A DNA stretch of 64,000 nt, taken from Planctomycetota bacterium. Its GTDB lineage: Bacteria; Planctomycetota; Phycisphaerae; WQYP01. Below are positions 3,768 to 23,790 of this stretch, one piece after another. The stretch covers positions 4,643 through 68,642 of the forward strand of contig JAJZJL010000002.1 of assembly GCA_021810145.1 (NCBI GenBank). The letters run 5' to 3'. The translations under genes were made by a program, and so were the position numbers. The first letter of the stretch is position 1, and each line of letters begins with the position of its first letter. The notes below the pieces were generated by a model. It did not search any database, had not been told where the DNA came from, and was given only the letters and a program-made list of their open reading frames with translations.

Positions 3768-3806
3768 CACCACCGGAAGCCTGATGGCTCGGCCGAGGTG
3801 TGCAGC

Positions 3807-6191: not shown

Positions 6192-6469
6192 CGGTACCGG
6201 CAAAACTGATTCGACAGGATGGCCAGCAGGGCATTGTCGACCTGCACGGCAATCGCCTGCCGGTTAATACGATGATGACTCCCGAGGCCAAACCCGGCGA
6301 CTGGATCTTAATTCATGCCGGATTCGCCATCGAGCGGCTTAATCCGGAGGCGGCCCGTGAAACCTTTGCACTGTTGGAAGAAGTTGACCGAACCAGCGGC
6401 AACAGCGATTACCGGCCCGATGCGCAACAAAACACCGCAACACCGGCTGTGCGAGGAGATATGTCATGA
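6182..6469 (+). CDS. hypC: Hydrogenase maturation factor HypC/HupF.
   Basis: Starts MCLAVPAKLI. The Met-Cys start is the HypC hallmark and the protein has an OB-fold-like sequence. GGAG sits 9 nt upstream. It overlaps the hypF stop. The C-terminal extension is longer than in canonical ~90-aa HypC. Confidence 0.85.
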   Translation: MCLAVPAKLIRQDGQQGIVDLHGNRLPVNTMMTPEAKPGDWILIHAGFAIERLNPEAARETFALLEEVDRTSGNSDYRPDAQQNTATPAVRGDMS

Positions 6470-7602: not shown

Positions 7603-8654
7603 ACAGACCATCTGTCAATCATGCAACAGCGCAGCTTCACGCCACACCCGCGCCATTTACGCACATCGCCTTGGCACATGGCGGCGGTGGGCAATTAACC
7701 GATGCACTGCTGCGCGATATTGTCATGCCCCGACTGGGTAATCCGGCGTTATCCCAGCTTCTGGACTCCGGGATTATTCCAGGCGGAAAACTCGCCTTAA
7801 CCATTGACAGCTACGTTGTTCAACCGCTGTTTTTCCCCGGCGGCGATATTGGTCGCCTGGCCGTCAGCGGAACAGTCAATGATTTAGCCGTATGCGGCGC
7901 GCATCCGCGGGCTTTGGCGCTGTCGATGATTCTGGCGGAAGGTTTGGATCGCAAAGTGCTTGAGCGCGTGCTGGACTCGGTCGCGGCAACCGCCGGCGAA
8001 GCGGGCGTGAGGATTATTACCGGCGACACCAAAGTGGTGGGAAGCGGACAGGCGGACGGAATATATCTGACTTCGGCCGGGGTTGGTGAATTAATGGGCC
8101 ATCCGCTACCGCATCCGGATCATATCGAGCCTGGCGATGTGCTGATGATCAACGGCCCGATTGGAGAGCATGGCCTGGCAGTGATGCTGGCACGTGAAAT
8201 GCCCGAAGTGGAAAGTGCTTTACGCAGCGATGTATCGCCGCTCAATGGTCTTATCGAACACTTGCGATGCGCGGTTCCGGAGGTGGTTTTTATGCGTGAT
8301 CCGACGCGCGGTGGTCTGGCTGGCGTTGCCGCCGATCTGGCCGCACGCACGGGCTTGCGCATCAATCTCGAGGAAACGCACATTCCCATTCGCCCGGAGG
8401 CCAAACACGCCGCGGACATGCTGGGGCTGGACCCGCTGGACATTGCCAATGAAGGAAAAGTGTTTGTGGCGGTGCGGCCCGCCCAGGCCCAGGCCGCGCT
8501 TCATGCCATGCGACAACATCCGCAGGGACGTGAGTCGCAGATTATCGGCTATGTAACTTCTGAAAAAGACGGGGTCTGTACTCTGCATACGTCCATCGGC
8601 GGATGGAGAGTGCTGCAGAAGCCATATGGAGAACAATTGCCGCGCATCTGCTGA
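7599..8654 (+). CDS. hypE: Hydrogenase maturation factor HypE (AIR-synthase-related ATPase).
   Basis: PurM-like fold motifs (LAHGGGG, GDTKVVG) and the HypE-specific C-terminal ...PRIC with the terminal Cys. ATGA overlap with hypD. Confidence 0.92.
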   Translation: MNRPSVNHATAQLHATPAPFTHIALAHGGGGQLTDALLRDIVMPRLGNPALSQLLDSGIIPGGKLALTIDSYVVQPLFFPGGDIGRLAVSGTVNDLAVCGAHPRALALSMILAEGLDRKVLERVLDSVAATAGEAGVRIITGDTKVVGSGQADGIYLTSAGVGELMGHPLPHPDHIEPGDVLMINGPIGEHGLAVMLAREMPEVESALRSDVSPLNGLIEHLRCAVPEVVFMRDPTRGGLAGVAADLAARTGLRINLEETHIPIRPEAKHAADMLGLDPLDIANEGKVFVAVRPAQAQAALHAMRQHPQGRESQIIGYVTSEKDGVCTLHTSIGGWRVLQKPYGEQLPRIC

Positions 8655-8693: not shown

Positions 8694-9206
8694 ATGCCAG
8701 TTAATACGGTTCTACCCAAGCCTCCCACCGAAGACAAACGGTGGAAAATTATTGAAACCACCATGCGGCGCAATGATTTCCAACCCGACGCCCTGATTGA
8801 AAGTCTGCACAGCGTGCAGCAGACGTTCGGCTTTCTGGATATTCCATCCATGCGTTGGGTGGCCGCAGCGCTGAAAGTGCCTCTGTCCAAGGTGTACGGC
8901 GTTGCAACATTTTATCATTTTTTCACACTTAAACCGCAGGGGAAGCATGTTTGTGTCGTCTGCATGGGAACGGCATGTTACATCAAAGGCGGCCGGCAGC
9001 TTCTGGATGAAATACAGCGGCATTATGCCATTGCGGAAGGACAGACCACCAAAGATGGCCAGCTTTCCCTGCTGGTGGCCCGATGCATTGGAGCATGCGG
9101 CTTGGCTCCGACGGTGGTGGTTGACGGAAATGTTCTTGGCAAACGGTCTGCCGCGGAACTTCTGGCGGCTCTGGATGAAACGGTGGAAAGGAAGCGGCAA
9201 TCATGA
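8694..9206 (+). CDS. hoxE: Bidirectional hydrogenase diaphorase subunit HoxE (NuoE-like 2Fe-2S thioredoxin-fold protein).
   Basis: CxxxxC...CIGACGLAP NuoE-type 2Fe-2S motif (VCVVCMGTACYIKGG...ARCIGACGLAPTVVVDG). Sits upstream of hoxF. Confidence 0.85.
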   Translation: MPVNTVLPKPPTEDKRWKIIETTMRRNDFQPDALIESLHSVQQTFGFLDIPSMRWVAAALKVPLSKVYGVATFYHFFTLKPQGKHVCVVCMGTACYIKGGRQLLDEIQRHYAIAEGQTTKDGQLSLLVARCIGACGLAPTVVVDGNVLGKRSAAELLAALDETVERKRQS

Positions 9207-10861
9207 AACCTGAAGAACTAATAAGCATGATGGAAAAGGCACGCGCGGATTCGTCCGCTTTCGAGCATGAAATCCGTGTCTGCACGGAATCAGGATGCAT
9301 GAGCCTGCAGAGCGATACCCTGCTCAAAGCCCTTGGAGATGAAGTCAAAACCCGCGGCATGACGGATAAAATCTGCGTCAAAGGCGTTGGCTGCATGGGG
9401 CTTTGCTGCAATGGACCGCTGGTTCAGGCCGACACGGCAATGTATCAATTTGCCAAGCCGGAACATGCCTCCGCTATTGTGCAAGGACTTTCAACACAGC
9501 CCGTTGCCGAGTTGCTCTGCAACACACAGCAGCCCTTCTTCACCCGCCAAAAACTTGTCGTGCGGGAGAATTCGGGGCACGTTGATCCGGAAAGCCTGGT
9601 CGACTGCATCGCCCACGGTGCCTATCAGGCCCTGCTTAAAGCCCTCACCACGATGACGCCCCATCAGGTCATACAGGAAATTTCTGATTCCGGCCTGCGC
9701 GGACGCGGCGGAGCGGGTTTCCCAACCGGACTGAAATGGGCCACCGTCTCAAAAGCCGGCGGCAGCGACAAATATGTGATCTGTAATGGTGATGAAGGCG
9801 ATCCGGGCGCATTCATGGATCGCAGTGTCATGGAAGGTGATCCGCATCGGGTGCTGGAAGGAATGGCCATCGCCGCATATGCGGTAGGTGCCGAAAACGG
9901 CGTTATTTATGTCCGGGCGGAGTACCCTCTGGCGGTCAAACGCCTGACGAAAGCCATCAATCTGGCGCGACGGCATGAGTTGATCGGCCATAATATTTTT
10001 GGAACCAAATTCAGCTTTAATGTCGAATTGCGGCTCGGTGCCGGAGCGTTTGTATGCGGCGAGGAAACCGCACTGATCGCAAGTGTGGAAGGCAAGCGCG
10101 GCGTTCCGCGGCCACGGCCGCCCTACCCGGCGAATTCCGGCCTCTTTGGCTGTCCCACGCTTATCAACAATGTGGAGACATATGCCAATGTCGCCCCGAT
10201 TATCAACAAGGGAGCGGCATGGTTTGCGCAGATCGGAACGGAAAAAAGCAAAGGCACAAAAATTTTCGCTCTGACCGGAACCGTCAAAAACTGCGGCCTG
10301 ATTGAAGTCGCCATGGGAATGCCGCTTCGCGAGATCATTTACGATATCGCCGGCGGCGTTCCGAATGGAAAAGCATTTAAAGCCGTGCAGACCGGCGGTC
10401 CATCGGGCGGGTGTATTCCCGCGGAACTTTTGGATATTACCGTGGATTATGAATCGCTGGCCAAAGCCGGATCCATCATGGGGTCCGGCGGCATGATTGT
10501 CATGGACGAAACCAGCAACATGGTGGATGTGGCCCGGTTCTTCATGGAATTCTGCATGACTGAAAGCTGCGGCAAGTGCGTTCCCTGCCGCGTGGGAACC
10601 TATGAAATGCATCAACTGTTGAATCGTATTTGTGAAAAGCGGGGCACGCCGGAAGACCTGCAATTACTGAAGGATTTATGCGGTATGGTCAAACAGACCA
10701 GCCTGTGCGGATTGGGTCAATCCGCACCAAATCCGGTACTCAGCACGTTGCGCTATTTTGAACATGAATACCTGGATCTTGTCAATCAAACTCAGGCCGC
10801 GCACGCAGACCAAAGCCCTGCCGCCACGGGTGAACATATTGAACTGGAGGTGCTCCCATGA
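9203..10861 (+). CDS. hoxF: Bidirectional hydrogenase diaphorase subunit HoxF (NuoF-like NAD(H)/FMN-binding).
   Basis: GRGGAGFPTGLKW FMN/NADH-binding motif, C-terminal ESCGKCVPCRVG 4Fe-4S motif and N-terminal 2Fe-2S thioredoxin-like domain. ATGA overlap with hoxE. Confidence 0.9.
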   Translation: MKPEELISMMEKARADSSAFEHEIRVCTESGCMSLQSDTLLKALGDEVKTRGMTDKICVKGVGCMGLCCNGPLVQADTAMYQFAKPEHASAIVQGLSTQPVAELLCNTQQPFFTRQKLVVRENSGHVDPESLVDCIAHGAYQALLKALTTMTPHQVIQEISDSGLRGRGGAGFPTGLKWATVSKAGGSDKYVICNGDEGDPGAFMDRSVMEGDPHRVLEGMAIAAYAVGAENGVIYVRAEYPLAVKRLTKAINLARRHELIGHNIFGTKFSFNVELRLGAGAFVCGEETALIASVEGKRGVPRPRPPYPANSGLFGCPTLINNVETYANVAPIINKGAAWFAQIGTEKSKGTKIFALTGTVKNCGLIEVAMGMPLREIIYDIAGGVPNGKAFKAVQTGGPSGGCIPAELLDITVDYESLAKAGSIMGSGGMIVMDETSNMVDVARFFMEFCMTESCGKCVPCRVGTYEMHQLLNRICEKRGTPEDLQLLKDLCGMVKQTSLCGLGQSAPNPVLSTLRYFEHEYLDLVNQTQAAHADQSPAATGEHIELEVLP

Positions 10862-11586
10862 GACCGGCTACATCAACCGTTGAATCTCTCACACTGCAAA
10901 TCGACGGCAAAGACATAAGCTGCCGAAGCGGTGAGACAATTCTTCAGGTTGCGCGTGATAACAATATTGATATTCCGACGCTGTGTTTTCTGGAGGGCCT
11001 TACGGTTTGGGGAGGTTGCCGGTTGTGCATGGTGGAGATTGCCGGATCACCCAAGCTTCATGCCGCCTGCGCCACAACCTGCGCCGAGGGGATGGTGGTC
11101 AGCACGGCGTCCCCGCGTCTGAAAGAATATCGCAAGATGATTGTGGAAATGCTCTTTGCGGAACGAAATCATGTGTGCGCGGTATGCGTCAGCAATGGGC
11201 ACTGTGAATTGCAGAATATGGCAGTGAAACTGGAAATTGACCATGTGCGGTTCCCGTATCGCTTCCCGCATCTGGAAGTTGATAATTCACACGATGCCAT
11301 GCGACTGGATCAAAACCGATGCATTTTATGCGTACGCTGCGTGCGCGTATGCGGAGAAATTGAAGGCGCTCATACCAAAGATGTAAAAGGCCGGGGCGTG
11401 CTGGCCGCCATTATTCACGATCTGGATCAGCCCTGGGGTGAAAGCGAGACGTGCACCGCCTGCGGAAAATGTGTTAACGTGTGCCCCACAGGCGCATTAA
11501 CCCACCGCGGCACGGCCGTTGGTGAAATGACCAAAAAAGCCCAGTTTTTACCGTATCTGACATTAATGCGGGAGGCCAAATCATGA
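10858..11586 (+). CDS. hoxU: Bidirectional hydrogenase diaphorase subunit HoxU (NuoG N-terminal-like Fe-S protein).
   Basis: 2Fe-2S ferredoxin N-terminus (CRSGETILQ...CFLEGLTVWGGCRLCMVEI) followed by CxxCxxCxxxCP 4Fe-4S motifs. Confidence 0.88.
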   Translation: MRPATSTVESLTLQIDGKDISCRSGETILQVARDNNIDIPTLCFLEGLTVWGGCRLCMVEIAGSPKLHAACATTCAEGMVVSTASPRLKEYRKMIVEMLFAERNHVCAVCVSNGHCELQNMAVKLEIDHVRFPYRFPHLEVDNSHDAMRLDQNRCILCVRCVRVCGEIEGAHTKDVKGRGVLAAIIHDLDQPWGESETCTACGKCVNVCPTGALTHRGTAVGEMTKKAQFLPYLTLMREAKS

Positions 11587-12149
11587 CCAGTTCCACAACC
11601 AGACCAACCGTGGCCACCGTGTGGCTTGATGGCTGCTCGGGGTGCCATATGAGCCTCATGGACCTTGATGAACGGCTTATTACGCTTGCCGGACTGGTGG
11701 ATATTTTACATTCGCCGGTGGTAGACCCGAAAGAATTCCCGCAAAGCGTGGATTTGACGCTCGTGGAAGGCGCGGTCAGCAGCGAAGAGGATCTGCATAA
11801 AGCCAGAACCATCCGCGCGCACAGCAAATATGTCATCGCCATGGGCGATTGTGCGGTTACAGGCAATGTTCCGGCCATGCGTAACTACTGGGATCGCTCT
11901 GAATTATTCGACCGCGCTTATGTGGAAAATGCCCAGGAACCCGCGTCGCCCGAAGAACGCAAAGCCTTGCTTCCGCTGGTGGTCGTACCGCCTCTACGCC
12001 CCCATGCCACACCGCTGCATGAGGTGATCAAAGTTGATGTTTTTCTGCCCGGTTGCCCGCCACCGGCTGATGCGATCTGGTTTGTGCTGACGGAATTACT
12101 GGCCGGACGCGTGCCCAACGCCATGAGCGTCTCGCGCTTTGGAAAATAG
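11583..12149 (+). CDS. hoxY: [NiFe]-hydrogenase small subunit HoxY.
   Basis: VWLDGCSGCHMSL proximal-cluster motif and GDCAVTG...PGCPP motifs of the NiFe small subunit. ATGA overlap with hoxU. Confidence 0.88.
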   Translation: MTSSTTRPTVATVWLDGCSGCHMSLMDLDERLITLAGLVDILHSPVVDPKEFPQSVDLTLVEGAVSSEEDLHKARTIRAHSKYVIAMGDCAVTGNVPAMRNYWDRSELFDRAYVENAQEPASPEERKALLPLVVVPPLRPHATPLHEVIKVDVFLPGCPPPADAIWFVLTELLAGRVPNAMSVSRFGK

Positions 12150-12190
12150 CCGGCGACCGGACGAACGGGCTTTGAAAAGAGGATGTTATC

Positions 12191-13621
12191 ATGACTCAAA
12201 CCATTACCATTGACGGCGTTACCCGCATTGAAGGACATGCGAAAATAACGATCCATCTGGATGATGCCGGAAAAGTCCGCGATGCGCAGTTTCATGTGAC
12301 TCAATTCCGCGGATTTGAGAAATTTGTGGAAGGCCGGCCGCTGACCGAGATGCCTGGCATTATGGCTCGAATCTGCGGAATCTGTCCTGTCAGTCATCTG
12401 ATGGCGGCGGCCAAGGCGTGCGATGATATTCTGGCGGTCCAAATACCTCCCACGGCGAATAAACTTCGCCGGATAATGAATTTAGCGCAATTGGTGCAGA
12501 GCCACGCGCTATCGTTTTTCCATCTCTCGAGTCCGGATCTGCTTTTTGGTATGGACGGCGATCCCATGCGGCGCAATATCTTCGGGCTGATTCGAGAACA
12601 TCCGGATTTTGCGCGTGATGGCATACTGCTGCGCAAATTCGGACAGGATGTTATCGCCTTGCTGGGGGGAAAAAAAATTCACCCGGCCTGGGTGGTACCG
12701 GGCGGAGTCAATTCACCTCTGACGGAAGAAACCCGCGACGCGATTTTGAAAGAAATTCCCGCCGCCATCGCCCGTGTGGATCGGGCCTTGAATTATTTTC
12801 ATGAAATTGAAGATCACTACCCCGCCGAAGTCGATGCGTTCGCTAACTTCCCGACGCTATTTGCCGGACTGGTAACGCCTGAAGGCCTCCTGGAACATTA
12901 TGACGGAGCCTTGAAATTTGTCGATCACAACGCCACGCCGGTGGCGGAACTCAGCTTGAGCGATAGCAGCCATTATGGAACGCTTATCAGCGAAGCAGTT
13001 GAGAATTATTCATACCTCAAGTTCCCGTATTTCAAGCCCCGTGGATACCCTGCCGGAATTTACCGCGTGGGCCCGCTGGCGAGGCTGGTTGTGGCTGAAC
13101 GATGCGGTACCATACGAGCGGACATGGAATTAGGTGTCTTTCGCACGCGTCTGGGCCGGGCGCCTCAGAGCAGTTTTCATTATCACTGGGCGCGGCTCAT
13201 TGAAATTCTCTTTGGCATAGAAATGATACAGCGACTGCTGCAGTATCCGGATATTCTCAACACCCATATCCGTTCGCGTGCCAGACCCAATCGGCTTGAG
13301 GGCGTGGGTATTTCCGAGGCTCCACGCGGCACCCTGATTCACCATTATAAAATCGATGAAAATGGCCTGATCCGATGGGCCAACCTGATCATCGCCACCG
13401 GGCATAACAACCTGGCGATGAATCTGGGCGTGCGACAGGTTGCCGAGAGATTTGTCGATGGCAACAAACTGCAGGAAGGCATGCTCAATCGCGTGGAGGC
13501 GGTGATTCGCTGCTTTGATCCGTGCCTGAGCTGCTCCACCCACGCGCTGGGGCAAATGCCGCTGCGAATTGAACTTTGTAGGTCAGATGGCGAGGTGTGC
13601 GATGTGCTGCAACGAAACTGA
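12191..13621 (+). CDS. hoxH: [NiFe]-hydrogenase large subunit HoxH.
   Basis: N-terminal RIEGHAKI...[10 protein letters not shown] and C-terminal [12 protein letters not shown] Ni-binding motifs, plus a C-terminal tail as expected for protease processing. Confidence 0.92.
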
Positions 13622-14174
13622 TTTCGCCGCCGCCCGGTATCACACATTGCTGATCGGCTATGGCAACACCTTACGCGCTGATGACGGAGCCGGGCCGGCG
13701 GTCATCAAAAAGCTCTCCGCGGTTCTGCCGGCGTATTGCGTTGAATTTGTGCGGCTCATCGCGTGCGGACAATTAACGCCGGAGTTGGCGCTGGACATCG
13801 CCGAGGTCCGTCGTGTTATTTTCGTGGATGCCAGCATGGCGCTTTCTCCCGGGCAATTGACTGTCAGGCCAATCCATCGGGAAGAATCCAACATCCTTAC
13901 CGGCCACCATTTCACGCCCGGAATACTGCTGAACATGACCCAACGCGCCTTCGGCGCATGTCCCATCGCGTGGGTGGCGGCGATCGGATGTCAGTCCACG
14001 GACATCGGTGACAAGCTTACTCCACAAATCGCCGCCGCGGTTGATCGGCTGGTATCGCATCTGCGTAACGGCATCTGCCAGTGGATTAACGGAAACAATT
14101 TTTTGCCGGAAGTGCTCACGGATGTGGTACCGGCTGCCATCATGCACAAACAAGCAGGAAAGGATTATTTATGA
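13602..14174 (+). CDS. hoxW: Hydrogenase maturation endopeptidase (HoxW/HybD family).
   Basis: LLIGYGNTLRADDGAGP motif typical of hydrogenase maturation proteases. It overlaps the hoxH 3' end. The start is uncertain; I chose the ATG at 13602 over 13569. Confidence 0.78.
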   Translation: MCCNETDFAAARYHTLLIGYGNTLRADDGAGPAVIKKLSAVLPAYCVEFVRLIACGQLTPELALDIAEVRRVIFVDASMALSPGQLTVRPIHREESNILTGHHFTPGILLNMTQRAFGACPIAWVAAIGCQSTDIGDKLTPQIAAAVDRLVSHLRNGICQWINGNNFLPEVLTDVVPAAIMHKQAGKDYL

Positions 14175-17100
14175 ATACTCAGGGACATACAACCATTGAC
14201 GGCAATGAGGCGGCAGCCAGCGTGGCCTACCGTACCAGCGAAGCGGCGGTGATTTACCCCATTACTCCCTCAAGCCCGATGGGGGAATTTTTTGATGAGT
14301 GGTCCACACGCGGGCAAGCCAATATCTGGGGTGATGTGCCGAAAATTGTGGAAATGCAGAGTGAAGGCGGCGCGATCGGCGCTGTGCATGGTGCCCTGCA
14401 GGCCGGATCGCTATGCACCACCGCCACCTCATCACAGGGATTGCTGCTGATGATTCCCAACCTATACAAAATCGCGGGCGAACTTACCAGTTTCGTCATT
14501 CAGGTGGCGGCGCGTTCTCTCTCGACCCATGCACTGTCCATTTTCGGCGATCACTCTGATGTGATGGCATGCCGGCAGACGGGTTTCGCCATGCTGGCTT
14601 CGATGAATGTACAGGAAGCACACGATCAGGCGGCTGTTGCATTGGCAGCCAGTTTGCGAAGCAGAGTTCCATTCATCCATTTCTTTGACGGGTTTCGCAC
14701 TTCGCATGAGCTTAACGGCGTTGCCATGCTTTCCGATGACCAGCTTCGCACCCTGATTCCCCAACAGTGGATTGCCGCGCATCGGAAGCGGGCGTTAACA
14801 CCTGACGCACCGGTGCTGCGCGGTACGGCGCAGAATCCAGATACGTTTTTCCAGGCGCGCGAAGCGGCCAACCCTTTTTACGATGCGCTGCCGGGCATCA
14901 TTGTTGAAGAAATGCGGCGGTTTGGACAACTTATCGGGCGGCCGTATGAACCTTATGAATACAGAGGCCATCCACAGGCGTCGCGCGTGATGATCATCAT
15001 GGGATCGGGAGCCGAAACCACCAGTGAAACGGTGCGGTATCTCCTGCAACAGGATCAGCGCGTCGGTTGCGTGATTGTGCGAATGTTTCGTCCGTTTGCG
15101 GGGGATTTGCTGGTCAGGGCCATTCCCGCAACGGCCCGGAAAATCGCAGTCATGGATCGCACGAAAGAGCCGGGATCCGCCGGCGAACCGCTGTATCAGG
15201 ATGTCGTGACCTCACTGGCTCGGGCGAAGATGACCGGTGCATTACCCATGGGTGAATTGCCGATGGTCATCGGTGGGCGATATGGCTTATCAAGCAAGGA
15301 ATTTACACCCGCGATGGTCAAAGCCGTATTCGACGAGCTGGATCAGGCCCATCCAAAGGCCCGGTTTACAGTCGGAATTAATGATGACGTTACACATCTG
15401 TCACTGAAAGTTGATGAGAGTTTTGATCTGCCTATGGGAGATGTGGTTCAGGCCGTATTTTATGGATTAGGCGCGGATGGTACCGTGGGAGCCAATAAGA
15501 ACTCCATAAAAATTATCGGCGATCAGACCGACTTACATGCCCAGGGTTATTTTGTTTACGATTCCAAAAAATCAGGTGCCATGACCATCTCGCATCTGCG
15601 ATTCGGAAAAGAGCCGATCCATGCCGCTTATCTGATTCGCAAGGCCAACTTCATTGCCTGCCACCAGTTTGAATTTCTCCAGCGCATGGACATTCTGGAG
15701 TTGGCCGCCCCCGGTTCGGTATTTCTGCTTAACGCACCGTTGGAGGCTCAACAACTATGGGATCATCTGCCGGTGGAAATCCAGCAGACCATTATCGAAA
15801 AGCGCCTGCGACTGTTTGCGATAGACGCAAACGCCGTAGCCCGCGACACCGGCATGGGCCGGCGAATCAATACCATTATGCAAACAGCTTTTTTTGCCAT
15901 ATCCGGGGTGTTACCGCGCGCTGCGGCGATCGAAGCCATTAAAAAGGCGATCAAAAAGTCCTATCAAAAGCGTGGCGAGGAAGTGGTTCAGCGGAATTAC
16001 AACGCGGTGGATCAGACGTTGGCCAATTTGCATGAAATCACCGTTCCTGCCACCGCCACTTCCGCCATTCGCCAGGAAAGCTTCACACAGCCGGCCATGC
16101 CGCCATTCACCCAACGGGTGCAGGCGGTCATGATGGCGGGAAAGGGCGATTTGTTGCCTGTCAGCGCATTTCCAGTTGACGGCACCTGGCCGACCGGCAC
16201 AACCAAATGGGAAAAGCGCAACATCGCGGTAGAAATTCCGGAATGGGATCAGCAATTCTGCATCCAATGCAACAAGTGCGCCTTTGTTTGTCCGCATGCG
16301 GCCATTCGGGCGAAACTTTATGACGCCGGCGAATTAGCCGGTGCGCCAAAACTCTTTAAGCACATGGCCTACAAAGCGCCCGATTTTAAGGGCATGTCCT
16401 ATACGCTGCAGGTGGCTCCCGAAGATTGCACGGGATGCGGATTGTGTGTGGAAGTCTGCCCGGCCAAGGATAAGGCAAATCCCAAGCACAAAGCCATTAA
16501 TATGGTTCCACAACGCCCCATCCGCGATCGTGAACGCGACAACTTCAATTTCTTTCTGAACATTCCGGAACTGGATCGCACACGCATTGCGCGATTGGAT
16601 GTGAAAGCCAGTCAATTCCTGCTGCCATTGTTTGAATTCAGCGGAGCCTGCGCCGGGTGCGGCGAAACGCCTTATATTAAATTACTGACCCAATTGTTTG
16701 GAGATCGATTGATTATCGCCAATGCCACAGGTTGTTCCTCAATCTATGGCGGCAATCTTCCCACCACCCCCTATACCACCAACCGCGATGGCCGCGGCCC
16801 GGCATGGAATAATTCCCTCTTTGAGGATAATGCCGAATTCGGTATGGGTATGCGGCTGAGCGTGGACCAGCACATCCGGCAAGCGCAACGTCTGCTGCGG
16901 GAACTTTCGGGTCATATCGGCGATAGCTTAACTTCCGCCATCCTTCAAGCGGATCAAACATCGGAAAAGGCAATAGCCGATCAGCGGCAACGGGTGGTGG
17001 AATTGCGCAAAGTCCTCCAGAACATCGATCAACCTCAAGCCGCGGCGCTGGCGCAAATAGCCGATTATCTGGTTCGCAAGAGCGTCTGGATCATCGGTGG

Positions 17101-17782
17101 CGATGGATGGGCATATGACATTGATTTTGGCGGACTGGATCATGTTTTGAGTCTGCCTTTTGATATCAATATTCTGGTTCTGGACACGGAAGTGTATTCC
17201 AATACCGGCGGCCAAAGTTCCAAGAGCACTCCCATTGGCGCAGTAGCCAAATTTGCCGCCGCCGGAAAAGCCACCCAGAAAAAGGACCTGGGACTTATGG
17301 CGATGAGTTATCGGCATGCCTATGTGGCAAGTGTCGCTTTTGGAGCCAATGATAATCACACCGTTCGCGTTTTCAGTGAAGCCGCAAGTTACCCCGGCCC
17401 ATCATTGATTATTGCATACAGCCACTGCATTGCGCATGGGTATGATCTCAAATTCGGGATCAATCAGCAGAAATTAGCCGTGGATAGCGGCGTGTGGCCG
17501 CTGTATCACTATGACCCGCGACTGCTGGCCCGCGGAAAACCGCCGCTGCAGATTGATTCGCCGAGCCAAAAGGCCAATGTGCGCGATTATCTTCGCAATG
17601 AGACACGCTTTTCCATGATTGAAAAAATGAATCCTGAAAGATTCCGCATGCTTTCGGAAGCATCCGTACGCAATACCGCCGAACGATTGGCACTGTACAG
17701 CCGGCTTGCGAGCTTTGCGTTTCCGGAACCCGAGGCCCCGGCTGAAGCAAGTCTAGCCGCCGATGAGGCGAAAGGAGAATAA
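14171..17782 (+). CDS. nifJ: Pyruvate:ferredoxin (flavodoxin) oxidoreductase, single-polypeptide PFOR.
   Basis: 1203 aa. The N-terminus MNTQGHTTIDGNEAAASVAYRTSEAAVIYPITPSS is canonical. It has two 4Fe-4S ferredoxin motifs (CIQCNKCAFVCPHAAI, CTGCGLCVEVCP) and TPP-binding GGDGWAYDIDFGG. ATGA overlap with hoxW. Confidence 0.93.
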   Translation: MNTQGHTTIDGNEAAASVAYRTSEAAVIYPITPSSPMGEFFDEWSTRGQANIWGDVPKIVEMQSEGGAIGAVHGALQAGSLCTTATSSQGLLLMIPNLYKIAGELTSFVIQVAARSLSTHALSIFGDHSDVMACRQTGFAMLASMNVQEAHDQAAVALAASLRSRVPFIHFFDGFRTSHELNGVAMLSDDQLRTLIPQQWIAAHRKRALTPDAPVLRGTAQNPDTFFQAREAANPFYDALPGIIVEEMRRFGQLIGRPYEPYEYRGHPQASRVMIIMGSGAETTSETVRYLLQQDQRVGCVIVRMFRPFAGDLLVRAIPATARKIAVMDRTKEPGSAGEPLYQDVVTSLARAKMTGALPMGELPMVIGGRYGLSSKEFTPAMVKAVFDELDQAHPKARFTVGINDDVTHLSLKVDESFDLPMGDVVQAVFYGLGADGTVGANKNSIKIIGDQTDLHAQGYFVYDSKKSGAMTISHLRFGKEPIHAAYLIRKANFIACHQFEFLQRMDILELAAPGSVFLLNAPLEAQQLWDHLPVEIQQTIIEKRLRLFAIDANAVARDTGMGRRINTIMQTAFFAISGVLPRAAAIEAIKKAIKKSYQKRGEEVVQRNYNAVDQTLANLHEITVPATATSAIRQESFTQPAMPPFTQRVQAVMMAGKGDLLPVSAFPVDGTWPTGTTKWEKRNIAVEIPEWDQQFCIQCNKCAFVCPHAAIRAKLYDAGELAGAPKLFKHMAYKAPDFKGMSYTLQVAPEDCTGCGLCVEVCPAKDKANPKHKAINMVPQRPIRDRERDNFNFFLNIPELDRTRIARLDVKASQFLLPLFEFSGACAGCGETPYIKLLTQLFGDRLIIANATGCSSIYGGNLPTTPYTTNRDGRGPAWNNSLFEDNAEFGMGMRLSVDQHIRQAQRLLRELSGHIGDSLTSAILQADQTSEKAIADQRQRVVELRKVLQNIDQPQAAALAQIADYLVRKSVWIIGGDGWAYDIDFGGLDHVLSLPFDINILVLDTEVYSNTGGQSSKSTPIGAVAKFAAAGKATQKKDLGLMAMSYRHAYVASVAFGANDNHTVRVFSEAASYPGPSLIIAYSHCIAHGYDLKFGINQQKLAVDSGVWPLYHYDPRLLARGKPPLQIDSPSQKANVRDYLRNETRFSMIEKMNPERFRMLSEASVRNTAERLALYSRLASFAFPEPEAPAEASLAADEAKGE

Positions 17783-17786
17783 GGTT

Positions 17787-18809
17787 ATGGATATGTCTAC
17801 AAACTATATGGGATTTGAACTTCCGCATCCGCTGATTCCCGGAGCATCTCCGATGGTCGGCGATATGGATACCGTTCGCCGCCTGGAAGATGCCGGCGCT
17901 CCAATGATTATCATGCACTCAATATTTGAGGAGCAACTGGTTAAAGAAGAGCTGTACGTGGACTGGACACTAACCCAGGGAGAGTACAACTCAAGCGAAG
18001 CATCCAGCTATCTTCCAACGCCGTACAATTTTCGTCTGGGACCGGATGCCTATCTTACGCAGTTGCAGAAAATAAAGGCTGCCGTGCATGTGCCGGTGAT
18101 TGCCTCGCTGAATGGGCGTACGCTTGGCGGCTGGACCGCCTACGCGAAGTTGCTGGAGGACGCCGGAGCCGACGGCATTGAATTGAATCTCTACGATCTG
18201 GCACTTTCAGCGTTTCGGGATTCGACGGATGTTGAACGCGAATCTCTGGCGATCATACAGGACGTGCGAAAGGCGGTTGAAGTTCCTTTGGCCGTGAAGC
18301 TGTCACCGTTTTATACTTCGCCGGTGCATTTTGTCGCTCAGGCAGTCAAATCCGGTGCGGGAAGCGTGGTGATCTTCAATCGCTTTTATCAAGCCGACAT
18401 TGATATTGAAAATCTCACGGTAACACGGGAACTCAAGCTCTCCACATCCGATGAACTTTTACCCCGCCTGCGATGGACCGCGGCGATCAGTGGACAGGTA
18501 GATTGCCAGGTGGCCATTACCGGTGGCGTTCAGAATGCCCGCGACGCCGTAAAGTGCCTGATGGTTGGGGCAGACGCCGTGCAAATCGTTTCAGCGCTTT
18601 TGGAATATGGTGCGGACCATCTGACGGTATTGCGCAATGCCCTGGCCGAATGGATGCAGTCCCATGAATATACATCCGTGAAACAGATGAAAGGCTCCAT
18701 GAGCATGGCGCGATCATCGGAGCCGGAACTCTTCGAGCGAGGCAATTATATTCAGATTCTTCAGGGGTGGAAAAAAGCGGAATCCGGCATGGAGTGTTTC
18801 TGGAGCTGA
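17787..18809 (+). CDS. Dihydroorotate-dehydrogenase-like FMN TIM-barrel protein lacking the catalytic Cys/Ser.
   Basis: Class-1 DHOD-like layout: PVIASLNG, VKLSP, IFNRF, ITGGV and VGADAVQIVSAL are all present. The active-site NISCPN is replaced by NLYDLA. Start 5 nt after the nifJ stop. Confidence 0.7.
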   Translation: MDMSTNYMGFELPHPLIPGASPMVGDMDTVRRLEDAGAPMIIMHSIFEEQLVKEELYVDWTLTQGEYNSSEASSYLPTPYNFRLGPDAYLTQLQKIKAAVHVPVIASLNGRTLGGWTAYAKLLEDAGADGIELNLYDLALSAFRDSTDVERESLAIIQDVRKAVEVPLAVKLSPFYTSPVHFVAQAVKSGAGSVVIFNRFYQADIDIENLTVTRELKLSTSDELLPRLRWTAAISGQVDCQVAITGGVQNARDAVKCLMVGADAVQIVSALLEYGADHLTVLRNALAEWMQSHEYTSVKQMKGSMSMARSSEPELFERGNYIQILQGWKKAESGMECFWS

Positions 18810-18812
18810 ATC

Positions 18813-19247
18813 ATGCATGAAGTTTCAATTGCGGAATCGTTGATTGCGTTAATCCGCCGTCACCTGCCGGCGCATCAGCGCCTTGTTCAGGCTACGGTGC
18901 GCATCGGACCGATGCACGGCATAGTACCGGAGGCCATGGAAATGGCATGGAATATCGCCAGTGCTGATGCGGGCTGGAAGGGATCACGGTTAATCGTCAT
19001 GACACCGCCCTGGCGATTGCGTTGTGTGGTGTGCGGGCGCTGCTGGGAACCGGTAACGGTTGACGAGCATTGCGTTTGTGGAGCCGCACACGTTGAGATT
19101 TTAGGCGGCGATGAGTTCCAATTGGATAGCATTGATGTTCATTCGGCGGCGAAACATCGCAGGCGGAACACCGCGCGACATGGCCGAGGCCGTCCGAGAA
19201 CTTTTACAAGGGGAGTCGCACATGAGCACCAAAGTTCCCATCGTTGA
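18813..19247 (+). CDS. hypA: Hydrogenase nickel-incorporation protein HypA, with a ~30-aa basic C-terminal extension.
   Basis: MHEVSIAESLIALIRRHLP N-terminus with the MHE Ni-binding motif, and a Zn site CVVCGRCW...HCVCG. The ORF continues ~30 aa past the usual HypA end and overlaps hypB. Confidence 0.85.
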   Translation: MHEVSIAESLIALIRRHLPAHQRLVQATVRIGPMHGIVPEAMEMAWNIASADAGWKGSRLIVMTPPWRLRCVVCGRCWEPVTVDEHCVCGAAHVEILGGDEFQLDSIDVHSAAKHRRRNTARHGRGRPRTFTRGVAHEHQSSHR

Positions 19248-19932
19248 AAATGTGCTCAAACTTAACGATGAATTGGCCCTGCAGAATCGGGAACTTTTTC
19301 AACGCTCCGGTGTGTTTGCCGTGGATTTAATCGGTGCCCCCGGTGCGGGAAAAACCGCTCTTCTGGAGTTCACGCTTCGGCAACTCAAGGACGTCATCAA
19401 CATCGGCGTGATTGTCGGTGATCCGGCAACCAGCCGCGACGGAGATCGTCTGGCCAAATACTCGCGGCATATTGTGCAGGTCAACACCGGAAGCGGGTGC
19501 CACCTCGATGCGAATCAGGTGCGCCATGCCATGGATAAACTCAAACTCGCCGATCTGGATGTACTGATTATTGAAAACGTGGGAAATCTCATCTGCCCGG
19601 TCTCCTTTAATTTGGGCCAGCACTGCAAGATCGGCATGTTCAGCGTCAGTGAAGGCGATGACAAAGCCGCCAAGCATCCGAATCTGGTTGTATCCGCTGA
19701 TCTGCTGATTCTGAATAAAATGGATCTGATTCCTTATATCCCATTTGATCTCGCACGCTTCCGGCAGGATGTTGAACATCTTAATCGCGCCGCCCCTTTG
19801 CTGGAAATTTCCGTTGTGCGCAATCAGGCCGCATCATGGCTGGACTGGTTGACGGCTCGCGCCGGGCAACAGAAGTCATTCCGAAAGGCCGGCAAGCATA
19901 AGGAAAAGGCCGTGGCAAGGAGTCAACGATGA
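19222..19932 (+). CDS. hypB: Hydrogenase nickel-incorporation GTPase HypB.
   Basis: GAPGAGKTALLE P-loop, ENVGNLICP and NKMDL G-motifs of the HypB/UreG family. I chose the ATG at 19222 with an AAGGGGAG RBS. It lacks an N-terminal His-stretch. Confidence 0.9.
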   Translation: MSTKVPIVENVLKLNDELALQNRELFQRSGVFAVDLIGAPGAGKTALLEFTLRQLKDVINIGVIVGDPATSRDGDRLAKYSRHIVQVNTGSGCHLDANQVRHAMDKLKLADLDVLIIENVGNLICPVSFNLGQHCKIGMFSVSEGDDKAAKHPNLVVSADLLILNKMDLIPYIPFDLARFRQDVEHLNRAAPLLEISVVRNQAASWLDWLTARAGQQKSFRKAGKHKEKAVARSQR

Positions 19933-20312
19933 AACTTGCGGTACCGGTATTGAATGGACAACTGTTCCCACACTTCGGCAGAAGTTCCGAGTTTGCGTTT
20001 TTTCAGTTCGATGCCACCACCGGAAACATTGTGTCAAAAGAGATTCTCGCCGCTCCCCCGCATGAACCGGGAATACTTCCCGCCTGGCTTCAATCGCACC
20101 GGATCAGTGTTTTGATAACCGGAGGAATCGGCGCACAGGCGGCCGAGCTGTGCCGCCGCAATGCAATACAGGTTCTGGCCGGCGCTCCTTCGGAGCCGGT
20201 TGAAAGGATCGTTACCGACTGGTTGCAGGGGCGTCTCGAACTTCATGCCAACGTGTGTACGCGGGATGAACATCATGAACATCGTCAGTGCGGAGAACAT
20301 CACCATGTCTGA
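19929..20312 (+). CDS. NifX/NafY/NifB-C-terminal-like (dinitrogenase FeMo-cofactor-binding family) small protein with a His-rich C-terminal tail.
   Basis: MKLAVPVLNGQLFPHFGRSSEFAFFQF...ISVLITGGIGAQAAELCRRNAIQVLAG matches the PF02579-type pattern (MKIAIP..HFG....GGIG..A...L...GI.V). The tail is HANVCTRDEHHEHRQCGEHHHV. ATGA overlap with hypB. Confidence 0.65.
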   Translation: MKLAVPVLNGQLFPHFGRSSEFAFFQFDATTGNIVSKEILAAPPHEPGILPAWLQSHRISVLITGGIGAQAAELCRRNAIQVLAGAPSEPVERIVTDWLQGRLELHANVCTRDEHHEHRQCGEHHHV

Positions 20313-20736
20313 TATGATTAAGCCACCAGCTCCCGGAGGTATTGCTTACGGTCCAAGTTGGCCGCACGCAATGAAAATACCGTTCGCCCTGAACATTCCA
20401 GGCATAGCACGGCAGGTCTCGGATTGCGACACGGTTTATGTGAAACATCCCGAGATCATGCATGAGGATATCTTTTCGTCCCCGCGTGGCCGCACGATGA
20501 CCAACGGCCTGTTGCGGCAGGGGCGAGCGGCAGCATCGCAATTAATCATCACGTTTCGCCAGCCGGCGGGGCTGAATATGCCCGCACCGTTGCAGGCCTG
20601 GATGATTACGAGAAAGCCTCAGGTGTTCCGCTTACCTGCCGCGATTATGCAGGATGGCGTGGCTAAGGCGGAAGCCCGCGCAAGCTTGATGTTGCCCAAG
20701 TGGAAAGACCTGGCAATACTGGACATACCGCAATGA
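20305..20736 (+). CDS. Hypothetical protein (144 aa) translationally coupled to the NifX-like gene.
   Basis: ATG at 20305 with GGAG 9 nt upstream. It overlaps the previous stop (ATGTCTGA). I recognised no family. The listed ORF 20161-20736 probably over-extends 5'. Confidence 0.35.
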   Translation: MSDMIKPPAPGGIAYGPSWPHAMKIPFALNIPGIARQVSDCDTVYVKHPEIMHEDIFSSPRGRTMTNGLLRQGRAAASQLIITFRQPAGLNMPAPLQAWMITRKPQVFRLPAAIMQDGVAKAEARASLMLPKWKDLAILDIPQ

Positions 20737-21086
20737 TATCGAACGTGGCCAATACGGTTTTGCTCGAAAACGCCGCACTTCAAGAGCTTTTTGCGGATCA
20801 GCGAGTTTCTGTGCTTTTGGCCAACATGGGTGCTCTGCTTAATGCAATTGATGATGCCGGAGAATGGCGGCGGATCAAACAATACCACACGCCGCGAGTT
20901 CCAGGTTGTTCCAGCAGGAATCAACTGCAACGAGTCGGTCTGGCTGTAACGCCGGGCCGGAAATTCTATTGGCAGGAACCACAACAAGTACTGAATTGCC
21001 CGCCGCATCGACCGTCGTTGCGACCTGGTGGTCTTCCCGCTTCCTCCGGAGAGCAGGACGATCAGACCACTGACCGGCAATCTTAA
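20733..21086 (+). CDS. Hypothetical protein. Low confidence; the C-terminal half is low-complexity.
   Basis: ATGA overlap with the preceding ORF. The N-terminal half looks helical and protein-like (MISNVANTVLLENAALQELFADQRVSVLLANMGALLNAIDDAGEWRRIK). The end is uncertain. Confidence 0.2.
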   Translation: MISNVANTVLLENAALQELFADQRVSVLLANMGALLNAIDDAGEWRRIKQYHTPRVPGCSSRNQLQRVGLAVTPGRKFYWQEPQQVLNCPPHRPSLRPGGLPASSGEQDDQTTDRQS

Positions 21087-21142
21087 GCCAATAGCAATAA
21101 GGGCCGTCAATACTTTTCACTGACTCCGGAAGAGAGGTTGCC

Positions 21143-21763
21143 ATGAAGCGAGTACTGGTCAATATTATCATCGACACCCTGGCAGCAATGGTGATGCTGG
21201 GATTGCTCGCCACCGGAATTATTTTGCGTTTTACGCTCCCTCCACGCAGCGGCCGCGTACGGACGCTGTGGAGTATGAGCCGGCACCAGTGGGGCGACCT
21301 GCACTTCTGGTTGGCACTGGCAGCTGTGGCAATTGTACTTCTACATCTGGCACTGCACTGGGATTGGGTAGTCTGCATCGTGCGCCGCTGGCTGGTCGGC
21401 GTTAATCAAGGTGGCCCCAGCAAGCGTTTACGAGTGTTTAGCGCCATAATTACGGCACTGATTGTCGCTTCGGCGATAACAAGTTTCTGGTGGATTTCCA
21501 CGCGGTCTGTAAAGCCCGCCGGTATGATTCAATCCGGGGGAAACGGATTTTCAAGCTCCGGATCCAACCTCCCCGGCAGCATGACTCTGGTTCGGACCGC
21601 CGCCACCTTGCATTGTTCCATCGCGGAGGTAAAGCATCGACTGGGATTGGCTTCCACCACTCCTGAAAGTGAACGGCTCGGCCAAATCGCCAGAGAACGG
21701 GGAGTAACCATGCGGGAAATTCGAAACCGCCTGGAATTGCAGAGCCGACACACCCAACCTTGA
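21143..21763 (+). CDS. DUF4405-like polytopic membrane protein with a ~90-aa cytoplasmic C-terminal extension.
   Basis: GAGAGG RBS. 3-4 TM helices with the conserved His/Trp pattern RHQWGDLHFWLALAAVAIVLLHLALHWDWVV reminiscent of DUF4405. The C-terminal part is HTH-like (LGQIARERGVTMREIRNRLE). Confidence 0.5.
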   Translation: MKRVLVNIIIDTLAAMVMLGLLATGIILRFTLPPRSGRVRTLWSMSRHQWGDLHFWLALAAVAIVLLHLALHWDWVVCIVRRWLVGVNQGGPSKRLRVFSAIITALIVASAITSFWWISTRSVKPAGMIQSGGNGFSSSGSNLPGSMTLVRTAATLHCSIAEVKHRLGLASTTPESERLGQIARERGVTMREIRNRLELQSRHTQP

Positions 21764-22258
21764 CGTGCACTGCAGTGAATCTCAATTTATTGCTGGAGGT
21801 GAAACAGGGACGCAATGACCTTTCCCGGCGACTGGCTCTGATTGTCCACTGCGTTCGCACCCCGCGGCGAGATACTCCGCGAACCCCGATGTCCCGCCAG
21901 CTTCACCTTCGCCGGCAATACGTTGCGTTCCATGCCCCTGCCCTTCGCCCGGCATGTGGAGCGACCGCAAAACGTCCGTGGTTATGGATTTAACATTAAC
22001 TGACGATCCGCAACAAAACCTGTGCGTGTGTCGCGCCGATAATCAGCCAATACGGCGCACTATTTCTGCCACCACAGGTGGAAGATACGCCCCGCCGCAT
22101 GATTCATAACGTGACATATACACACACATATGCCATGGCAGCGACGCTCTTTTCCTGCGATACCATTATTCCATCACAGATCCCCCCGGACGTTCATATC
22201 ATTGGCGTCCCCGTTCCGCGGTTTACAACCACATGATGCATGTCCCCTTTAAAATATC

Positions 22259-22300
22259 GTGGTACGGGCGATTCCGGCCCACTTTTTTTTATTTTTTTTG
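22259..22300 (+). terminator. Putative intrinsic terminator: bulged GC hairpin (GTGGtacGGGCgattccgGCCCAC) followed by a long T-tract.
   Basis: Hairpin plus ttttttttattttttttgcttttttttc, read directly. It may instead only be the UP-like T-rich region of the adjacent promoter. Confidence 0.35.
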
Positions 22301-22310
22301 CTTTTTTTTC

Positions 22311-22339
22311 TTGACATCGGCAGGTACAAAGTCTATGGT
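22311..22339 (+). promoter_or_regulatory. Strong sigma70-like promoter: TTGACA, 17-nt spacer, TATGGT, preceded by ~30 nt of T-tracts (UP-element-like).
   Basis: cTTGACAtcggcaggtacaaagtcTATGGTg. Unusually AT-rich for this genome. It would give a ~200-nt leader before the ORF at 22549. Confidence 0.45.
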
Positions 22340-22548
22340 GCCTTTTGTAGCTTGAGGATGGTCCTCTTGCGCGAAGACCGGTTCCAGCGGGCCGTAACAG
22401 TACAGACCGATGGAGAACGGGATCGAAGCGGGGCGTGTGCACGCGCCAGGCAACTCCAGCCTTTTCCTCTTCTCTCGTAATTTTTCACCACCACATGCTG
22501 ACGCGGCCAAGCGGAGCCAGAGTTTCCTTTTAAGGAAAGGGTAAAACC

Positions 22549-22881
22549 ATGCAAAGTCGAAGAAATCTTATTGGATGGGCTGCCGCCCTGCTCATGATGG
22601 CTGCCTTCTGGGCGATCACCCCGGTCGTTCATGCCCAACAGTGGCAAGGGGCGCAACAACCAGCCCAGGCGAAAAGCCAGACCTTTGTTGGCAGGGTTTT
22701 CAAGCTCCAGGGCGGAAAGTACGCCTTGATCACAGGCAAAACACCGCAGGGCCAGGTGGCTGGGCACTATCTGAAGAATCTCCACAGTCCCAAGAAATAT
22801 GTTGGCAAAACGGTGAAGGTCACTGGGACCTTGAACATGAAAACCAACACGATCCATGTAAAAAAAATCCGGACCGAATAA
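22549..22881 (+). CDS. Small secreted protein (110 aa) with a signal peptide, possibly OB-fold/BOF-like.
   Basis: AGGAAAGGG RBS. N-terminal signal peptide (LIGWAAALLMMAAFWAITPVVHA). Mature part is Q-rich then beta-rich (KYVGKTVKVTGTLNMKTNTIHVKKI). Bracketed by its own promoter and a perfect terminator. Confidence 0.55.
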   Translation: MQSRRNLIGWAAALLMMAAFWAITPVVHAQQWQGAQQPAQAKSQTFVGRVFKLQGGKYALITGKTPQGQVAGHYLKNLHSPKKYVGKTVKVTGTLNMKTNTIHVKKIRTE

Positions 22882-22914
22882 TCGGGGCCGGACCGTGATC
22901 GTATCTTGTGCAAT

Positions 22915-22953
22915 GACAGAGAGGCTGCGGCCGCAGCCTCTCTGTCAATTTTT
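22915..22953 (+). terminator. Rho-independent terminator.
   Basis: Perfect 16-bp inverted repeat GACAGAGAGGCTGCGG/CCGCAGCCTCTCTGTC followed by AATTTTT, 34 nt after the stop at 22881. Confidence 0.75.
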
Positions 22954-23120
22954 AGACGCGAACATACGCTGATGGCCGTGCACTGGTTGCCGTTGCCCTT
23001 ACTGTGAAGACCGCCCAGGGTGCGCGCATCGCCATCGCGGTCGGTAAGGCTTGCTCGGCATCAGTGTCGGTGCACCCATCTCGCCATTCCATTTGGACAG
23101 AGCCAAAGTTCCTGTGAATT

Positions 23121-23438
23121 TTGCGCAACGTTTCCGCCGAGCAATTTGAACTCTTGGCGATGTCCCATGCGGTCCGGCTCTTATTTGATCGGGCAGTATA
23201 TTTGAATTGTTACGGCACATTCCCCAGTCGCCTAATCAAGCTTTCGCCCACGTACCTTTCTACGATTCCACACGACCCATACACCGGAAAACCATTTGGC
23301 TACACTGCCAGCCCGAACGGCTGCACGGTTTACAGCCCCGGCAGATTTCCATCGCGATTGACAACTGGCATACACATTCTGCCCGGCCGCCCCATCCTGG
23401 CCTACCTGAGCTTGCCGGCGGGGAGATATCCCCTCTAA
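23121..23438 (+). pseudogene. Remnant of a type-II-secretion pseudopilin (GspG/PulG-like) gene lacking the N-terminal prepilin signal/TM helix.
   Basis: AVRLLFDRAVYLNCYGTFPSRL...IPHDPYTGKPFGYTASPNGCTVYSPG parallels the GspG C-terminal region (ALELYKLDNGRYPTTEQGL...DPWGNPYQYVSPG). I could not find a GFTLIELLVV-type N-terminus upstream in any frame. Confidence 0.35.
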
Positions 23439-23790
23439 GCATCCGCCGAGCGGGGGCCGCTTGTGCCACGAACCGCCGTTTTTTTCACCTCGCGTTTTTG
23501 GTAATCGGAGGCTGTTGTGTAGTGAAACACCAAGTTTCGCCGAGCACCGGCACATGAATGTGTCAACTGACATTGCTTTCAACCGAGTTGTGTTGGCCGG
23601 TGCATTTATTCATGGCCTGGCGGAATTCACCGTGGCGGAGTGCGATAGACTCGATGGCCCGTACTAGTGCAGATGGGGAGACGATAACGGGTGGCTGGTC
23701 AATATGTCAGATGGAATATTTCCGCCTTAGATTCAAAACTTCCGCCGGCGGCATTAGAATAGCTGGGAGTTTGCCGGCTGTACCAAGGAG

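Follow-up and report, generated by a model that had tools for sequence, protein, structure and literature searches.

What are the four open reading frames (ORFs) that follow the hydrogenase maturation genes hypA and hypB in a planctomycete contig: a working addition to the nickel-insertion machinery, or the remains of another operon? The locus lies in a stretch of 64,000 nucleotides (nt) from a Planctomycetota bacterium (contig JAJZJL010000002.1), hereafter the window, in which hypB is followed by a NifX-like gene, by two short frames termed ORF143 and ORF117, and by a gene for a DUF4405 membrane protein. A preliminary description had linked all four to the HypAB step. The gene chain that it reported from hypB to ORF117, joined by ATGA/ATGTCTGA overlaps, is present in full: the NifX-like ORF starts at 19929, in an ATGA overlap with the end of hypB (19932); ORF143 starts at 20305 inside ATGTCTGA, overlapping the 3' end of the NifX-like gene (20312); and ORF117 starts at 20733, in a further ATGA overlap with the end of ORF143 (20736). 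Spacing between ORF117 and the DUF4405 ORF (21143) is 57 nt. The length of about 117 amino acids (aa) given for the last frame of the chain also holds; the frame said to have 144 aa has 143. The same gene order occurs in 8 contigs from different samples at 99.5-100% nucleotide identity (metagenome-assembled genome records of the window species are GCA_027429775.1 and GCA_027428595.1), and annotators list ORF143 and ORF117 as hypothetical proteins.

We consider it probable that the region is a decaying operon tail, in which a piece of a module of the Mrp/orange-protein (ORP) type would stand behind the hox and hyp genes with its middle genes decayed and its NifX-like and DUF4405 genes intact. 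Homology, motif loss, deletions, synteny and distribution, each of them observed, carry this reading, under which the locus is an ordinary case of operon decay.

The comparison begins with two relatives, L010 and L011. In L010, of which L014 is an independent assembly, the order hoxFUYH, PFOR, dihydroorotate-dehydrogenase (DHODH)-like gene, hypA, hypB, NifX-like gene is that of the window; L011 is a 2.8-kb contig that opens within hypB, of which it has the last 35 codons. Behind the NifX-like gene, both relatives have a 4HBT hotdog thioesterase and then a 285-aa hydrolase of the metallo-beta-lactamase (MBL) fold. Next in L011 come a 306-aa damage-control phosphatase (ARMT1/DUF89) and a gene beginning MKRLLVNII, as compared with MKRVLVNIII in the window DUF4405 protein, and L011 is the only contig in which all module genes are intact. 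The ancestral order in the clade would thus have been hypA, hypB, NifX-like gene, hotdog thioesterase, MBL-fold hydrolase, DUF89/ARMT1 phosphatase and DUF4405 gene. The NifX-like/thioesterase junction of L011 carries the same ATGNCTGA overlap as the window, and its thioesterase/MBL and MBL/ARMT1 junctions are ATGA overlaps. Since the L011 junctions carry the same overlaps, those of the window were inherited from an intact operon, and they are therefore no evidence of present function; the preliminary description had read them as a strong sign of co-translation.

The wider distribution of the module also points away from a general addition to HypAB. Alignment scans with the NifX-like protein gave 68 metagenome loci and 2 more from genomes, 66 of them non-redundant (L010 and L011 included). 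Of 50 informative loci, 32 have a thioesterase gene, an MBL gene or both immediately behind the NifX-like gene and on its strand; ARMT1 was found in 7 of the loci. Around a third of the matches are the C-terminal domain of a Mrp-type ATPase of ~410-440 aa (the MrpORP architecture), and the recurrent neighbours are Mrp/MinD ATPases, a radical SAM enzyme, a sigma-54 regulator, and small Zn-ribbon and Gly-rich proteins, a set that is an ORP-type cluster. The parent module is thus found mostly in Mrp/ORP-type clusters without hyp genes. As hypB is directly upstream in only 2 of the 48 loci with enough upstream sequence, namely L010 and L011, the link with hypAB is limited to one narrow clade. Similarly, the DUF4405 gene is not a general partner, since no homolog was found in the other loci of the scan. 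Examples of the module, among loci L015-L081, are L067 (7910-11603), L059 (10001-11587) and L039 (2768-4353). In the papers searched we found no described function for a NifX-like/thioesterase/MBL(/DUF89) module.

ORF143 and ORF117

ORF143 is a degenerate ortholog of the thioesterase. With the L011 thioesterase as query, tblastn aligns window positions 20266-20724 (E 2e-39, 47% identity); an exhaustive HMMER search yielded 22 thioesterase relatives, and a hidden Markov model (HMM) of the family detects ORF143 at E 3.6e-13. A word-indexed search had returned only 2 matches, from the same species and from the relative L009 (80% identity), and the notion of an orphan gene was rejected once the exhaustive search gave thioesterase relatives. 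There is no match of ORF143 to Pfam 4HBT (PF03061) at E <= 10, whereas 21 of 23 aligned relatives match this model, the intact orthologs of L011 and L067 scoring 31.6 and 33.9 bits. P0002, the sister copy of ORF143, has no precomputed Pfam domain, and neither ORF143 nor ORF117 has a Pfam or NCBIfam match.

Most of the residues that define the family are also gone. Intact orthologs share H..C..C, then Y.G.LHGG.I..LLD.AMT.CLF; of 33 near-invariant columns taken from 13 intact orthologs in related loci, ORF143 keeps 9 and the L009 copy 13. The N-terminal HxxCxxC is lost from ORF143, which has HED for HGG and PRG for LLD. The L009 copy has YGG for HGG and retains the Asp, so that its losses differ from those of ORF143. 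In PaaI/THEM2-type hotdog enzymes, a glycine at the start of a helix and a carboxylate in the middle of it carry catalysis. Because the catalytic residues of HGG and LLD are lost, ORF143 is likely inactive, and most likely represents an inactive protein or a young pseudogene. A model computed with the family alignment as input adopts a predicted hotdog fold (predicted local distance difference test, pLDDT, 70) nearest to THEM2, PaaI and the Arthrobacter 4HBT enzyme, on which it superposes with TM-scores of 0.6-0.77 (2h4u, 1j1y, 1q4u). As the family alignment steers the model, it is no proof that ORF143 itself folds.

Rates of change are elevated as well. The comparison of ORF143 with the L011 thioesterase gives a nonsynonymous rate (dN) of 0.40 and a ratio to the synonymous rate (dN/dS) of 0.47; the L010 and L011 thioesterases, at similar dS, give dN 0.13 and dN/dS 0.10 over the first 100 codons, which lie ahead of the L010 frameshift described below. 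ORF143 shares with L011 a start in the ATGNCTGA overlap, at 20305. Gene callers place it at 20266 or 20275 (156 or 153 aa), because ATGs arise in the next frame from the CAT/CAC codons for His in the NifX-like tail (window 20266-20305).

ORF117 appears to be a deletion chimera of two genes. With sensitive settings, blastn against L011 gives three collinear pieces (Table 1), the first of which establishes orthology with the MBL gene for the start codon and the initial ~14 codons. The placement of the second implies an in-frame loss of 126 nt (42 codons), a probable deletion that would have removed the HxHxDH metal motif: the motif reads SHGHYDH in the L011 hydrolase, and the 117 aa of ORF117 contain no HxHxDH. 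Past this loss, ORF117 has a weak in-frame similarity to MBL residues 74-128. The MBL/ARMT1 region occupies ~1.77 kb in L011 vs 354 nt in the window, with a larger deletion of ~1.3 kb, and a frame-2 peptide, ...PAASTVVA...RRAG, matches the ARMT1 C-terminus of L011, ...PDASTVAA...RRAG. The last ~35 codons of ORF117 (to 21086) are an out-of-frame read across this ARMT1 remnant, which accounts for the low-complexity C-terminus. The MBL/ARMT1 deletion is fixed in the 8 contigs from different samples. On this evidence the MBL and DUF89 genes would have been reduced by deletions to ORF117, itself without function.

Profile methods add little to this alignment. ORF117 has no Lactamase_B (PF00753) match at E <= 10, scores -0.4 bits (not significant) with an HMM from 23 MBL orthologs, and its ARMT1 remnant is not significantly detected by an ARMT1 HMM from related loci; the amino-acid alignment with the L011 MBL protein does beat all shuffles (0/500). 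Since the evidence from the middle piece is weak, it is synteny and the two flanks, both well aligned, that carry the remnant reading. A word-indexed search matched ORF117 in its own species only, which first suggested an orphan gene, an idea dropped on the L011 DNA alignment and synteny. In all four ORFs codon usage prefers the frame that is annotated; the preference is clear in ORF143 (0.17) and weak in ORF117 (0.044 vs -0.02 for the antisense frame). Of the homologs and coding signatures by which the preliminary description proposed to judge its two small ORFs, ORF143 thus has both, while ORF117 has a weak score and no homolog outside the species. Nor do the two frames stand as the unknowns they were taken for, being a degenerate thioesterase and an MBL remnant joined to an out-of-frame DUF89 3' end.

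Decay is seen elsewhere in the clade, and reaches the NifX-like gene. In L010 and L014 a TGG codon of this gene has become TAG (10293-10295) just ahead of the His tail, past which the frame stays open and keeps HHECGHHH. The L010 thioesterase has a frameshift through a 4-nt GTGC-repeat insertion at about 10695-10705, and the two independent assemblies agree on both changes. In L009, the closest other species, an in-frame deletion of 165 nt (window 20080-20244; about L009 position 246) at a 5-nt microhomology (ACTTC) takes away residues ~51-105, removing the domain core and keeping the His tail, though on a contig of 778 nt this may be an assembly error. Within the window species, variable amino-acid sites per residue number 0.008 in HypB, 0.017 in ORF117, 0.033 in ORF143, 0.039 in the DUF4405 protein and 0.055 in the NifX-like protein, a crude measure that is not normalised for synonymous change. 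Single-nucleotide polymorphisms within the species (2 in ORF143, 1 in ORF117) are too few for a selection test.

The NifX-like and DUF4405 proteins

Both family assignments made in the preliminary description hold. The NifX-like protein matches PF02579 at 60.6 bits (cut-off 26.3, E 1.9e-16), its residues 9-99 covering model positions 2-93 of 94, and the DUF4405 protein matches PF14358 at 56.8 bits (cut-off 26.7; residues 9-73, full model). In NCBIfam the NifX-like ORF matches best to the C-terminal domain of MrpORP (NF041136), at 97.6 bits against a membership cut-off of 450 and over model positions 265-365 only. Its relatives of solved structure, by sequence, are structural-genomics proteins of unknown function, TM1816 (1t3v, 1o13) and PH0822 (2yx6). 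The subfamily-invariant His15, His45 and Cys75 are kept, identity to the proteins in the same place behind hypB in L010 and L011 is 64-66%, and dN/dS is 0.13-0.28. The His/Cys-rich tail is likewise real: it comprises residues 106-127, HANVCTRDEHHEHRQCGEHHHV, and its core ECG(E)HHH is shared with L011 and, beyond the stop codon, with L010. Most family members end ...C.DH and are tail-less; His tails are also present in L013 and L052, both without hyp genes nearby.

What might such a protein do? It would be co-transcribed with hypAB and is intact by domain criteria, and it would most likely carry a small metal cluster, given that the homologous Di-Nase domain of MrpORP binds Fe-S in vitro (PMC6345978); this domain and the ORP cluster of Desulfovibrio vulgaris are its nearest described counterpart. 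Relatives of the NifX-like protein in the 66 loci are often fused to, or beside, Mrp/MinD ATPases and a sigma-54 regulator. The window protein differs in lacking a P-loop domain, in its place behind hypB and in its His/Cys tail, which is rare among relatives, and there is no Mrp/MinD gene or homolog in the 64-kb window. The Pfam domain is shared with the NifX/NafY carriers of FeMo-cofactor in nitrogenase assembly, but our ORF and Pfam survey of the operon in the window, from hypF to the DUF4405 gene, found no nif genes, and the relatives lie in Mrp/ORP-type clusters. Histidine-rich nickel stores and chaperone tails include the HypB His stretch, the SlyD C-terminus, Hpn, UreE and CooJ. The C-terminal run of the NifX-like protein resembles such sequences (reviewed in PMC7055735) and is encoded beside nickel chaperone genes, but here the tail is on a NifX-like fold. 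It could add a Ni or Zn buffering site, and nickel buffering is a reasonable suggestion because HypB lacks an N-terminal His/Cys nickel site. In the literature searched, no paper ties the NifX-like fold to hydrogenase maturation or nickel handling.

For the DUF4405 protein, hydropathy predicts three transmembrane (TM) helices, with His54, His68 and His72 in TM2, and a disordered linker joins these to a small helical domain of ~60 aa at the C-terminus, which has no family match; a single-sequence model (pLDDT 63) is too weak for further use. Heme b is bound by DUF4405 proteins and by FezC, a related protein of ferrosomes for which heme binding as a dimer is proposed (PMC11334425). The window protein is similarly a small three-helix protein with His residues in one TM helix, and by analogy is probably a small heme-b membrane protein acting as a dimer, but it has no apbE, flavinylation or ferrosome genes nearby and carries the extra C-terminal domain. 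We rejected an identification as the cytochrome b subunit of hydrogenase (Ni_hydr_CYTB, PF01292), for which the score is 20.5 bits against a cut-off of 30.1; the enzyme has the HoxEFUYH set.

The hydrogenase operon

The hydrogenase genes form a single long run on the + strand of the window (Table 1). Both models of the HypA/HypB pair are matched. HypA has an N-terminal MHE motif and a CxxC...CxC zinc site; past the Pfam domain, its C-terminus (19150-19247) is a 35-aa basic, His-containing extension that overlaps the start of hypB by 26 nt. HypB has the Cys-His and Cys residues of the G domain, and a reading of its N-terminus found no His-rich or CxxCGC nickel site. An alternative, longer hypB begins at an in-frame ATG at 19111, and JGI gene calls use a 265-aa form. 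Between window and L010, dN is 0.094 and dN/dS 0.15 for hypB, and dN 0.062 and dN/dS 0.06 for PFOR.

Table 1. Features of the hydrogenase operon and its tail, with their positions in the window
Feature	Position	Strand	Remarks
hypF	3723-6191	+	
hypC	6173-6469	+	
hypD	6466-7602	+	
hypE	7599-8654	+	
hoxE, F, U, Y, H	8694-13621	+	HoxEFUYH-type [NiFe] hydrogenase
HoxW-like protease (candidate)	13602-14174	+	HycI match weak, 17.9 bits (cut-off 23)
PFOR	14171-17782	+	
DHODH-like gene (PRK07565)	17763-18809	+	392 bits
hypA, nickel metallochaperone	18813-19247	+	Pfam HypA, 76.8 bits, E 1.7e-21, residues 1-109
hypB, GTPase	19222-19932	+	TIGR00073, 230 bits (cut-off 121.2)
NifX-like gene (Nitro_FeMo-Co / Di-Nase domain), 127 aa	19929-20312	+	PF02579
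ORF143, degenerate HxxCxxC-type hotdog (4HBT/PaaI-like) thioesterase ortholog, 143 aa	20305-20736	+	
ORF117, chimeric ORF, 117 aa	20733-21086	+	
MBL-fold hydrolase gene remnant, 5' part of ORF117	20733-20979	+	blastn vs L011
DUF89/ARMT1 phosphatase gene 3' end remnant	20990-21073	+	frame 2
blastn piece 1	20266-20775 (L011 459-971)		66%; thioesterase, ATGA junction, first 14 codons of MBL/ORF117
blastn piece 2	20824-20979 (L011 1146-1301)		56%, E 0.011; MBL interior, same reading frame
blastn piece 3	20999-21171 (L011 2638-2811)		68%, E 1e-21; last 65 nt of ARMT1, spacer, start of next gene
DUF4405 membrane protein, 206 aa	21143-21763	+	PF14358

The ORF at 13602-14174, between hoxH and PFOR, overlaps both neighbours and may be a divergent HoxW-like protease or another protein. 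PFOR and the DHODH-like gene (14171-18809) sit between the hox structural genes and hypAB and are under strong purifying selection (dN/dS about 0.05-0.06); their placement suggests a pyruvate-to-H2 unit in one operon. Poor coding scores and the lack of a Pfam match led us to reject antisense ORFs at 20619-21110 and 20875-21378, and a horizontal insertion was rejected on the flat base composition over the region. Rfam detected no RNA families in the window. Downstream of the DUF4405 gene, two long stretches without a convincing ORF (21764-22548 and 22882-23790) lie on either side of a small secreted DUF5818-like gene (22549-22881), which has a strong terminator at 22914-22947 and, preceded by a long run of T, a near-consensus promoter at 22311-22339. 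Given the decay next to them, these stretches may be gene remnants too.

Alternative readings and what remains

How firmly, then, can decay be preferred? Several observations weigh against it. When the window and L009 are compared, dN/dS in the frame of ORF143 is 0.37; of the other five frames, four have values of ~1.0-1.4 and one has 0.52. The two copies share the length of 143 codons, and the C-terminal half is well conserved (0.29). ORF143 is therefore relaxed yet not neutral: either the gene has been disabled recently, or it may still be making a protein that is not catalytic. In roughly 12-20 contigs from the population, neither ORF143 nor ORF117 has a variant that breaks its frame, and the middle of ORF117 resembles the MBL gene weakly (blastn E 0.011; HMM not significant). 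The metal-binding roles of the two intact proteins are, moreover, proposed from family resemblance. It could be that ORF143 and ORF117, after losing catalytic residues, now serve as small proteins without enzymatic activity, such as adaptors of the NifX-like or DUF4405 protein. The frame-specific constraint on ORF143, the hotdog fold of its model and the intactness of both frames in all sampled contigs would agree with this, as would the existence of non-catalytic hotdog proteins, FapR being among the fold matches. However, ORF117 ends in another gene's remnant read out of frame, its coding score is barely above that of the antisense frame, and its homologs were not found outside the species. 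The differing losses, HGG to HED in the window and H to Y in L009, fit relaxed constraint better than a new fixed function, and we give a new role for the two frames a slim chance.

A working, co-translated accessory system of all four ORFs, aiding HypAB in nickel insertion into the Hox hydrogenase, was the proposal of the preliminary description, and we now hold it to be very improbable. In its favour, the overlaps exist and the operon does lie on a single strand, a His/Cys-rich tail accompanies a HypB without its own N-terminal site, the junction of hypB with the NifX-like gene is conserved in L010 and L011, and there is some purifying selection on ORF143. But the family-invariant motifs of ORF143 are gone, ORF117 is a deletion chimera without HxHxDH, and relatives have intact enzymes at these positions. 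ORF143 and ORF117 have no close homologs beyond the species and one sister; the co-occurrence with hypAB that the proposal called for is confined to 2 of 48 loci, both in one narrow clade; the DUF4405 gene is missing from the other loci; and two sister lineages have a broken NifX-like gene, with a truncation in L010 and an internal deletion in L009. Alternatively, the His-tailed NifX-like protein alone may matter, either storing or donating nickel for HypAB in this clade or carrying clusters for the Fe-S-rich Hox and PFOR proteins, with the rest as decaying cargo. Its domain is intact, three lineages at ~65% protein identity and dS near 1 retain the ATGA overlap with hypB, the tail persists in a family that is mostly tail-less, and dN/dS is low. 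Yet L010 and L014 have a stop codon between domain and tail, L009 lacks much of the domain, the gene exceeds the other four compared in amino-acid polymorphism (0.055 per site vs 0.008 for hypB), and the His-tailed relatives L013 and L052 have no hyp genes nearby. We regard this as unlikely, albeit with some real chance. The more specific proposal, that in a narrow uncultured clade whose HypB lacks the N-terminal nickel site an ECG(E)HHH-tailed NifX-like protein was recruited behind hypB as a new kind of nickel-storing or nickel-donating protein, or as one that carries Fe-S for Hox and PFOR, strikes us as distinctly unlikely.

Decay of an operon tail thus remains the reading we prefer, and its main value is as a correction: overlaps and open frames resembled two new coupled maturation proteins, and comparison with relatives reveals the leftovers of enzyme genes. 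The His-tailed NifX-like protein linked to hypB is a modest remaining lead; if its recruitment were true, the Di-Nase fold would be newly linked to [NiFe]-hydrogenase maturation. The intact parent module may merit more study than the decayed copy in the window.

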